In this document: piece by piece, positions 34,179-35,093 of the stretch | Layout of the letters: each line of letters begins with the position of its first letter | How positions within the stretch are numbered: the stretch's first letter is position 1 | IMG/VR virus record: IMGVR_UViG_3300044723_011986 | Span: 1-54,750 of that record | Reading direction: 5' to 3' (one strand) | DNA from: a virus | Lineage: Duplodnaviria; Caudoviricetes | DNA length: 54,750 nt | Translations under genes and position numbers: made by a program | The notes under the pieces: model-generated | What the model saw: only the letters and a program-made list of their open reading frames with translations | The model's database searches: none | Told to the model about the DNA's origin: nothing

Positions 34179-35093
34179 TCAATTTATTATATGACCAGAT
34201 CCAATTTTCAGACTAATCTTGCACATCTTAATGTTACTAAATTCTGACAGTTTTGAAAACACATCTCTTGTTAGAGACTTAATAAAATTCATATCATACT
34301 GCAATGTCTCTTTTGTCTCTGAAGACCTTAGATAGAACTCTCCATATAGAAACTCATTTCTTAGCATAAAGTGGCACAGAGACAAACAGGAGTCATCTGT
34401 GTATATAAATCTACGTGACTCGTGTGTTTCTTCTCTTCCGTATTCATTGGCACCTGCCAATTCATTGTCAATCTTATTTAAAAGTTTTCTTCTGATTTTA
34501 TCATAGTATACTTTTTCCTTTTCATAACGAAGCATTTCTTCTGATATGTCATCAAACATGCCATCATCATAATGAACAAGATTTAATCCAACTTTTTCTA
34601 GATTATCAGATGAGGCTGCTGCTATTTTAAAAAACTCAGCATATTCATGGTAGAGCTTTCTTTCAAAATGAGATCGAAGTTGATGAACAATGTAACTCAC
34701 CATGTTGTCATCAACTTCTGTCTTTATTAGAATTACATTTGGATAATTTTCAAACTCATCGGCTGCTTCTGAAAAAAGATCATAAACTTTTTTGAGTGAT
34801 ACTAGATTTTGAATTTCATCGCCTCTCTTTTGAAATCTTTCTGCAATAACACTCCAGTCAGGAAGTAGAAGTATCATAACATTATTAAGATTTGAAATTT
34901 CTCTTTTAAGAGATTCTACATGAAAATAGTCGCTTCTTCCGTAGAGGCGAGCATATACAATCATAGAAAGAGAAGATCGATCTTGAATATTCCAAAAATA
35001 GCCAGACTTCTCATGTAACTTTTGATAAAGCGTAGTTTTTCCGCTTAAATCCGGCCCTTCTAGTGTAATTTGATTTATTGGCGTCCTTCTCAT
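34179..35093 (-). CDS. NMP kinase fused to a thymidylate-synthase-like domain
   Basis: [18 protein letters not shown]-terminal ESRR...C...HF...YLRSSE...LQYD. Confidence 0.75.

Follow-up and report, generated by a model that had tools for sequence, protein, structure and literature searches.

To our knowledge, every known pathway that modifies a pyrimidine of phage DNA before replication starts with an enzyme of the thymidylate synthase (TS) family, the products being 5-methyl-, 5-hydroxymethyl- and, since 2025-26, 5-hydroxycytosine. For the last of these, passages of Lee et al. (2026, PMC13326640) describe how RB69, DLP3 and RL38J1 make 5-hydroxy-deoxycytidine monophosphate (5-hydroxy-dCMP) with a flavin-binding TS homologue, and Table 1 of the same paper places a 'nucleotide kinase' resembling YorR and thymidylate kinase (TMK) one to two genes from the TS homologue in three unrelated 5-hydroxycytosine clusters (DLP3_078, RB69p045 and RL38J1_214); the map of RB69 confirms p045 and p048. 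Here we describe a gene at positions 34179-35093 of an IMG/VR virus record of 54,750 bases from an uncultured large marine phage, analysed at its full length and referred to below as the window (18% complete by the CheckV estimate), whose product, judged from its sequence and predicted structure, is a two-domain protein composed of a YorR/thymidylate-kinase-type P-loop kinase and a minimal TS fold. By analogy, the fusion can be viewed as a Rosetta-stone version of the kinase/TS-homologue pairing seen in the 5-hydroxycytosine clusters. Our search of the full-text literature found no published description of a TS-kinase fusion, and the part of a jumbo-phage survey that touches on the subject mentions TS in general terms only (PMC7824862). 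The gene and its two domains are laid out as follows:

34179-35093, minus strand, stop codon included: fusion gene (kinase/mini-TS) of 304 amino acids (aa) with an ATG start, from the list of open reading frames (ORFs)
34662-35093, minus strand: YorR/thymidylate-kinase-type P-loop nucleotide kinase domain, residues 1-144 (Pfam, structure search and hhalign)
34182-34661, minus strand: minimal TS-fold domain, residues 145-304 (AlphaFold2, VIA and Foldseek)

No Pfam, PHROG or NCBIfam model reached the TS part of the 304-aa protein; a tblastn search with the fusion protein against 50,697 phage records returned no match at E<=1e-3, and a single-sequence phmmer search of the Protein Data Bank (PDB) returned no meaningful one. 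The AlphaFold2 model of the full-length protein scored a predicted local distance difference test (pLDDT) of 97.0 and a predicted template modelling score (pTM) of 0.91, and the C-terminal string that an earlier note on this DNA had aligned by eye to ThyA is identical in every letter to residues 225-267 of the translation. At the level of sequence and predicted fold, we consider the finding real and robust. What the protein does is a separate question; the likeliest reading, to which we give about even odds, is that C5 of dCMP is modified first and the resulting nucleotide is then raised to the diphosphate to serve the phage replicase.

The C-terminal domain carries the novelty of the protein, and it was modelled alone as residues 145-304 (AlphaFold2; pLDDT 96.0, pTM 0.90). 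A VIA structure search of 48,161 representative PDB chains, which is independent of Foldseek, returned seven best chains that all belong to the TS superfamily (Z 8.9-11.4), the eighth chain scoring Z 5.7. The best of them was an AfhB-type flavin-dependent dCMP monooxygenase (9iqc_A; Z 11.4, root-mean-square deviation 3.0, 142/160 residues aligned), and it was joined by three TS chains (Z 9.7-10.4), one fusion of dihydrofolate reductase (DHFR) and TS (Z 9.4), MilA (Z 9.3, or 11.0 when the full-length model was searched) and T4 dCMP hydroxymethylase (Z 8.9). Foldseek gave 325 matches of the domain in the PDB at E<=0.001, with the AfhB type at the top (E 2.0e-7), and among the matches listed all were TS, DHFR-TS, dCMP hydroxymethylase, MilA or AfhB. 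The TS-like fold that the earlier note had proposed is therefore present by AlphaFold2, Foldseek and VIA alike, and we describe the domain as a predicted complete but minimal TS alpha/beta fold.

Profile methods led to the same superfamily, and to its dCMP-directed members in particular. Searched against the PDB, the C-domain profile placed T4 dCMP hydroxymethylase (E 0.0015) and AfhB (E 0.008) at the top, and five of the six matches at E<=10 were TS-family dCMP enzymes. In pairwise hhalign comparisons, the domain reached 88.4% with T4 gp42 (E 2.8e-6, the confident cover extending over residues 235-303 only), 74.2% with RB69 gp48 (E 2.8e-5) and E 3.9e-4 with E. coli ThyA, and the profile built from 195 sequences matched a 3-sequence TS alignment at 94.9% (E 1e-8). 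Among homologues there was a sub-threshold match to the TS model TIGR03283 (E 0.0023), and the precomputed annotation carried the classical TS family PF00303 for none of the 120 homologues listed. PF27365 was also considered as a model of the C-domain and set aside as unlikely, because only one of the 120 homologues listed carries it; a re-search did not reproduce that match.

We also modelled residues 145-304 as a homodimer, which was predicted to form through the beta-sheets with an interface score (ipSAE) of 0.85, against 0.00 for the best of three controls; of the reference proteins, 20 of the 30 with homo-pair structures attain the mark applied to this score, as does 1 of the 23 whose structures are single chains. 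Three runs showed 100% contact agreement with a partner pLDDT of at least 91, and in the model R227 and R228 contact R256 and S257 of the other copy, which is the TS arrangement. Since TS dimers are among the solved structures, this pass may reflect mere likeness to them.

The residues of the presumed active site were followed through 195 full-length homologues and 78 diverse representatives taken at 50% identity, and these two sets underlie all conservation counts below:

34410-34418, minus strand: S226-R227-R228, equivalent to ThyA S125-R126-R127, the phosphate-binding arginines given to the partner subunit (hhalign; R227 in 189/195, R228 in 187/195)
34386-34388, minus strand: C236 codon, predicted catalytic nucleophile, equivalent to E. 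coli C146 and T4 C148 (hhalign and a HMMER alignment to 1b49; 187/195)
34374-34376, minus strand: C240 codon, the cysteine of 'LCHF' (Cys in 90/195 homologues and 0/78 representatives)
34323-34328, minus strand: R256-S257, equivalent to ThyA R166-S167 (hhalign; 190/195 each)
34317-34319, minus strand: E259 codon, at the ThyA D169 position (hhalign)
34293-34295, minus strand: D267 codon, at the ThyA N177/T4 D179 position, the base-specificity residue (hhalign; 192/195)
34191-34193, minus strand: H301 codon, equivalent to ThyA H207 (hhalign; 189/195)

The by-eye pairing of the SRR and RS motifs with ThyA was reproduced by profile methods, and the equivalences of SRR, RS and D267 agree in all four profile alignments (ThyA, T4 gp42, RB69 gp48 and the TS alignment). 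The phosphate site of the superfamily, formed in an obligate dimer by R166/S167 and the partner's R126'/R127', has its counterparts in the sequence as well as in the predicted dimer. The Asp that had been claimed at the Asn177 site likewise holds up; it is D267, and T4 dCMP hydroxymethylase, MilA and AfhB, which make up the dCMP branch, share it. The candidate catalytic cysteine of the earlier note was, by contrast, misplaced: it had pointed to C240 of 'LCHF', whereas the alignments put C236 on the catalytic Cys, and C236 is kept in 187/195 homologues and 71/78 representatives. Because C240 is a Cys in only 90/195 homologues and in none of the 78 representatives (where I occurs 41 times and L and F 10 times each), we regard it as an apparently clade-specific residue and C236 as the likely nucleophile.

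Two further positions speak to the branch of the family. Passages of PMC13326640 state that Asp at the N177 position confers dCMP preference, give N177D and L143D/E as the hallmark changes by which dCMP hydroxymethylases and hydroxylases are recognised, and propose Asn at the D169 position as a mark of 5-hydroxy-dCMP synthases (Lee et al. 2026). In the HMMER alignment, D233, three residues before C236, falls on T4 D145, the L143 position, so that the window protein has the acidic residue there; across the family this position is polar and not always acidic (D in 133/195 homologues; D 26, S 18, N 11, Q 8 and E 5 among the representatives). At the D169 position the 195 homologues show N in 105, E in 50 and D in 33, and the 78 representatives N in 40, D in 28, H in 4 and E in 3. 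The E259 of this clade resembles the acidic residue of T4 dCMP hydroxymethylase at the corresponding place.

The N-terminal domain is a kinase of a more familiar kind. Pfam Thymidylate_kin (PF02223) matched residues 34-122 (E 1.4e-6; 28.6 bits, cut-off 27) and PHROG 761 'thymidylate kinase' matched the fusion protein (E 1e-11), while a profile of 58 homologues searched against the PDB found SPbeta YorR (E 6.5e-13) ahead of deoxythymidine monophosphate (dTMP) kinases, which began at E 7.2e-5. The family profile aligned to the YorR of the SPbeta record at 97.6% (hhalign, E 3.9e-12), and in the full-length AlphaFold2 model residues 7-148 superposed on YorR (3kb2_A; VIA Z 13.7, root-mean-square deviation 2.8, 138 residues aligned), followed by deoxynucleoside and dTMP kinases at Z 11-12.6. 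The motifs that define a thymidylate-kinase or YorR-type nucleoside monophosphate kinase, that is, a TMK-like fold with P-loop, D-R motif and lid arginines, are all found, and no fewer than 190/195 full-length homologues share each of G13, D15, G18, K19, D38-R39, R86 and R90-G91-D92. Over the motif residues as a whole, conservation is at least 186/195, and all nine kinase motif residues are intact in 184/195. The P-loop lies at:

35034-35057, minus strand: P-loop G13-T20 (G-P-D-L-S-G-K-T), with D15, G18 and K19 each kept in 194/195 homologues

SPbeta YorR (2axp, 3kb2) and the thymidylate kinases thus share the fold, the P-loop and the D-R and R-x-x-x-R-G-D motifs with this domain, but YorR stands alone as a protein of 165 aa and has an extra segment of ~28 residues after the P-loop helix.

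A kinase beside a TS homologue could also act on the base itself. Passages of Lee et al. (2018, PMC5889632) report that genes for 5-hydroxymethyldeoxyuridine (5-hmdU) DNA kinases (5-HMUDK) co-occur with TS-homologue dUMP hydroxymethyltransferases, and in ViI the 5-HMUDK gene Vi01_061c adjoins a thyA homologue, a configuration that would suit a kinase which phosphorylates the new hydroxyl on the modified base and so provides a leaving group for hypermodification. We consider such a role for the fused kinase very improbable, given that its nearest structures are deoxynucleoside monophosphate (dNMP) and deoxynucleoside kinases and that the family profile scored 16.8% against the ViI enzyme, over 17 P-loop residues only, versus 97.6% against YorR. 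The fusion protein has no match to the 5-hmdU DNA kinase family PF18748 at E<=1, and ViI 061c itself matches that family at E 2.6e-116; the identity of the N-domain as a 5-hmdU DNA kinase was ruled out on the lack of a PF18748 match and the P-loop-only hhalign.

Taking the two domains together, we infer a route that would run from a dCMP-like substrate, through catalysis with some cofactor and hand-over of the product to the kinase, to incorporation into DNA. The mini-TS dimer would bind a cytosine mononucleotide, most likely dCMP, with its phosphate held by R256/S257 and by R227/R228 of the partner subunit and its base read by D267. C236 would then attack C6, activating C5, at which a substituent would be added, and the N-terminal YorR/TMK-type kinase would phosphorylate the product to the diphosphate, a step that would commit it to the phage's own DnaE replicase, encoded just upstream.

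We think it unlikely that the protein serves the phage just as its kinase for dTMP or for dNMPs in general, with the TS domain a non-catalytic partner used for dimerisation, nucleotide binding or regulation (e.g. dCMP sensing to tune the kinase), but the kinase motifs are indeed the most strictly kept part of the protein, and six homologues that have lost four to seven of the seven TS-site residues keep all nine kinase residues in each case. A binding-only domain would, however, need no nucleophilic Cys, yet C236 is kept in 187/195 homologues together with the whole phosphate- and base-binding set; all seven TS-site and all nine kinase residues are intact in 174/195 homologues, and where TS-site residues go they go together rather than piecemeal, an all-or-none pattern expected of a single catalytic site and not of a purely structural domain. 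The genomes of relatives also matter here: the five most complete contain no other TMK-family gene above cut-off, and the phages may therefore depend on the fused kinase for dTMP arising from ThyX and thymidine kinase (TK), in keeping with the source annotation of the protein as a thymidylate kinase and with the missing cofactor-holding segments discussed below; on the opposite side, the protein stays below the cut-off of the NCBIfam dTMP kinase equivalog TIGR00041 (31.9 bits against 83.25).

The six homologues with depleted TS sites are P0192, P0193, P0196, P0207, P0223 and P0125, some of which apparently have a wholly different C-terminal region.

Several observations weigh against C5 modification of dCMP followed by phosphorylation, and those that concern the C-domain itself come first. 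The fusion protein ends three residues past H301, which corresponds to ThyA position 210 of 264, and in the VIA superpositions the TS-family chains span ~213 residues, of which no more than 132-145 have a counterpart in the domain (140-145 for the TS chains) and ~70 internal residues have none. A forced global hhalign gave near-zero confidence in the N-terminal half of the domain, in which no equivalents of ThyA E58, Y94 or R21 could be assigned. At E<=1, PF00303 does not match the window protein, and the homologue P0088 matches it at E 0.097 and 12.2 bits, below the cut-off of 24.3. The Asn proposed for 5-hydroxy-dCMP synthases at the D169 position is replaced here by E259.

In TS, the folate is closed over by two elements, a C-terminal segment that follows H207 and a helical insert inside the domain. 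Neither is found here, where the chain stops short of the first and probably lacks the second; particular named residues are presumably lost with them. Since the domain ends after H301 and lacks ~70 internal residues, the classical folate site is probably incomplete in both sequence and model, and the C-domain may have no folate or flavin site of its own. Folate-dependent hydroxymethylation cannot be assumed for a domain without the C-terminal and probably the internal parts of that site. AfhB-type enzymes likewise end soon after the strand that bears the conserved 'S-x-H', a point beyond which the chain of classical TS runs on. Because the C-terminal and probably the internal folate-holding parts are missing and the best structural match is AfhB, we slightly favour 5-hydroxylation, or some other addition of a non-classical kind, over hydroxymethylation or methylation with folate.

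The same missing parts would also suit a TS domain that is catalytic but works on its cytosine nucleotide without a cofactor or by some novel reaction, such as Cys-assisted deamination or C5 exchange, or that takes CMP rather than dCMP, so that its product would not be a DNA base modification. The top structural matches include the CMP enzyme MilA, the same cassette holds a gene with the MilB-like nucleoside 2-deoxyribosyltransferase fold, and no enzymes for excluding dCTP were found. We nevertheless hold chemistry of this kind to be quite unlikely, in that a zinc dCMP deaminase is already present in 62/81 related loci, which would make a second deaminase redundant, and in that fusion to a TMK/YorR-type kinase beside the replicase better fits the supply of DNA precursors.

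The remaining unfavourable points concern the nucleotide economy of related genomes and the nature of the sample. MazG occurs in 1/20 related records and a dUTPase-fold gene in 6/20, neither of them in the 100% complete genome; DHFR occurs in 0/20, and no recognisable dCTP-removing enzyme, of MazG type or other, was found in the related records. The lack of a dCTP-removing enzyme and of DHFR in these related, more complete genomes argues against a T4-style full replacement of cytosine. The zinc dCMP deaminase, ThyX and TK of the cassette make up an ordinary dTMP economy. Glycosyltransferases are present in some relatives only and mostly far from the fusion gene (family GT1 in 7/20 and GT2 in 5/20). 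Finally, the related loci form one syntenic lineage with several near-identical members, and for that reason the order of their genes cannot count as independent support for a functional link; what the conserved order does show is that the fusion gene belongs to a nucleotide and replication cassette.

In these same relatives the fusion gene is the only gene with a TS fold. PF00303 was above cut-off in 0/19 related records, one of which is the 100% complete genome of 284 kb, and the C-domain profile found exactly one copy in each of the five most complete genomes. We hold only as a tentative and rather doubtful possibility the wider proposal that these large, uncultured phages of aquatic habitats, a cosmopolitan lineage with genomes to 284 kb and at least 174 contigs in IMG/VR, carry throughout the lineage a non-canonical cytosine in their DNA, with another cofactor, or a composite site shared with the fused kinase, standing in for the classical one and with direct hand-over of the product.

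Set against the enzymes it most resembles, the C-domain would combine known features in a new and shorter form. The flavin-dependent dCMP 5-hydroxylases of the AfhB/RB69 gp48 type (9iqc, 9iqu) share the TS fold, as the best structural match, along with its catalytic Cys, both motifs (SRR and RS) and the Asp at the N177 position, but they have 217-238 residues against 160 in this domain, carry the proposed D169N signature where E259 stands here, and are encoded near a separate kinase rather than fused to one. T4 gp42 dCMP hydroxymethylase (1b49, 1b5d), the best sequence-profile match in the PDB, has C148, D179 and D145 where this domain has C236, D267 and D233, and an acidic residue at the D169/D171 position as in E259; it differs in its 246 residues and its folate site, in the separate and unrelated dNMP kinase gp1 of that phage, and in the T4 dCTPase, of which no counterpart was found here. 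Classical ThyA (PF00303) has the fold in common (Z 9.7-10.4), as well as the predicted dimer with arginines across the interface and the Cys, Arg-Ser and His motifs; on the other hand, it has Asn177 where Asp stands here, the last 54 residues of E. coli ThyA and ~70 internal ones are missing here, its Pfam cut-off is not reached, and these phages make dTMP by ThyX. DHFR-TS and other TS fusions also join a TS-fold domain to the enzyme of a neighbouring step, but in the present protein the partner is an N-terminal kinase, joined to a TS domain that is minimal and belongs to the dCMP type.

The neighbourhood of the fusion gene was compared across 81 related loci, in 80 of which ORF calling recovered the fusion gene itself (the exception being L038). 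Its conserved same-strand order is (NT5C)-ThyX-deoxyribosyltransferase-like (NDT)-(SDR)-DnaE-fusion-SDR-TK-DHH-dCMP deaminase, where SDR stands for short-chain dehydrogenase/reductase. The corresponding genes of the window are:

47849-48763, minus strand: NT5C-like nucleotidase (Pfam)
46876-47871, minus strand: ThyX (Pfam Thy1, E 6.6e-20)
46424-46876, minus strand: nucleoside 2-deoxyribosyltransferase-like gene (Pfam E 1.1e-12; PDB 6evs E 5.8e-6; in 46/81 loci)
36435-39950, minus strand: DnaE-type DNA polymerase III alpha, upstream of the fusion gene (tblastn matches annotated DnaE-like polymerases)
35090-36178, minus strand: GMP reductase (NCBIfam GMP reductase, E 5.2e-161; 535.6 bits, cut-off 397)
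33081-34121, minus strand: SDR gene resembling nucleotide-sugar 4-epimerases, the next one downstream of the fusion gene (Pfam Epimerase E 4.5e-42; PDB 6dnt E 4.4e-52; WbgU E 6.6e-47)
32519-33079, minus strand: TK (Pfam E 1.2e-40; in 65/81 loci)
31655-32509, minus strand: DHH phosphoesterase (Pfam; in 60/81 loci)
31258-31698, minus strand: dCMP deaminase (Pfam; in 62/81 loci)

The ThyX-like gene and the thymidine kinase that the earlier note had listed are thus both in the window. DnaE is present in 78/81 loci and adjoins the fusion gene in 49/80, the downstream SDR is present in 72/81 and adjoins it in 44/80, and the trio of NT5C, ThyX and deoxyribosyltransferase also lies upstream of DnaE in many related loci. 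SPbeta offers a parallel, with yorR ~1.6 kb downstream of a DnaE-type polymerase in the order DnaE-like yorL, yorR and NT5C-type yorS.

In the window itself, the stop codon of the GMP reductase gene overlaps the ATG of the fusion gene (ATGA, read from the sequence), and a spacer of 57 bases separates the fusion gene from the SDR epimerase-like gene downstream. The overlap translationally couples a full-length GMP reductase to the fusion gene, and GMP reductase occurs in only 24/81 related loci. Two SDR epimerase/dehydratase paralogues (33081-34121 and 42202-43197, both on the minus strand) flank the DnaE-fusion pair, the first being closest to UDP-GlcNAc/GalNAc 4-epimerases. The fold of the nucleoside 2-deoxyribosyltransferase-like protein (46424-46876) also includes the N-glycosidases of dNMPs and of hydroxymethyl-CMP, e.g. 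MilB, the partner of TS-like MilA, and the substrate of this protein could be either a canonical nucleotide or whatever the fusion protein makes.

A link to DNA glycosylation was considered, as the neighbouring SDR is a relative of UDP-hexose 4-epimerases, but glycosyltransferases are patchy in the lineage and we did not build on it. Among the five most complete relatives, Glyco_trans_1_4 was found in three and GT8 in one, and the T4 beta-glucosyltransferase family matched in none of the five, its control likewise matching nowhere. Two related loci carry a family-8 glycosyltransferase (Pfam E 1.4e-14) directly upstream of DnaE-fusion-SDR (L021 5621-6400 and L022 5615-6397). Six others (L009, L010, L012, L015, L017 and L019) have a dUTPase-fold gene of 139-153 aa that lies 0-3 genes downstream of the fusion gene, and its L009 member matches Pfam dUTPase at E 2e-21, with a weaker dCTP-deaminase-like match.

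The replication genes of the lineage show features of their own. In L006, L053, L058, L012, L051 and L081, DnaE, upstream of the fusion gene, is called in two pieces, with an ORF of 300-345 aa between them or with a separate piece containing HHH_6, which would fit the insertion of mobile elements or polymerase genes that are split or carry an intein. In the window, a ResIII/DEAD-type helicase ORF (4290-5768, minus strand) has Hint/intein matches at residues 396-488, where the ORF ends, and may be intein-interrupted or split. The window also encodes a GroEL-type chaperonin (18629-20236, minus strand; Cpn60_TCP1 E 3.2e-66), and related contigs have DnaJ and a full Hsp70 (E 2.8e-242) directly upstream of DnaE (L023 1547-4586). 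A 233-aa protein (30296-30997, minus strand), present in 64/81 loci, matches the Fe/Mn superoxide dismutase C-terminal domain only (E 2.2e-17).

The family is large and almost wholly viral. A search of a collection of 5.8 billion proteins gave 583 members at E<=0.001 among 1,282 candidates, which reduce to 230 representatives at 50% identity, and relatives are encoded on 174 IMG/VR contigs; in their sources these proteins are named 'thymidylate kinase' or 'hypothetical protein'. Among 185,579 species genomes scanned, seven loci matched, one of them full-length (L087, on a 26-kb contig of an archaeal metagenome-assembled genome) and the rest with the kinase part only. When shorter proteins were searched for stand-alone C-domains, only two matches appeared, both of them fragments of close relatives on contigs of 0.5-1.2 kb. 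A few representatives of 143-189 aa begin with Met and may represent either split genes or shortened gene calls. The lineage has no cultured relative, and its DnaE polymerase is less than 30% identical to that of any phage in the reference collection. Most large ORFs of the window (25189-28176, 40018-42180, 43298-44821 and others) are without any Pfam or PHROG match, and the lineage is very poorly represented in reference databases.

On the strength of sequence and modelling, we place this family in the dCMP-type branch of the TS superfamily, as a form that is minimal, fused to a kinase and widespread in an uncultured phage lineage. It is ~40% shorter than any characterised TS-family member and retains the full set of nucleotide-binding residues and the nucleophile, and its fused kinase is of a type that is a mere neighbour in the known 5-hydroxycytosine clusters. 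If the domain is active, it would define the minimal catalytic core of the TS fold and may turn out to use a cofactor in a new way or to make a new product. Activity would also predict modified DNA in an abundant lineage of uncultured phages, which may build an altered cytosine into its DNA; such modified DNA, if real, would bear on sequencing bias in viromes, on the evasion of restriction and CRISPR, and on the enzymes available for the synthesis of modified nucleotides.

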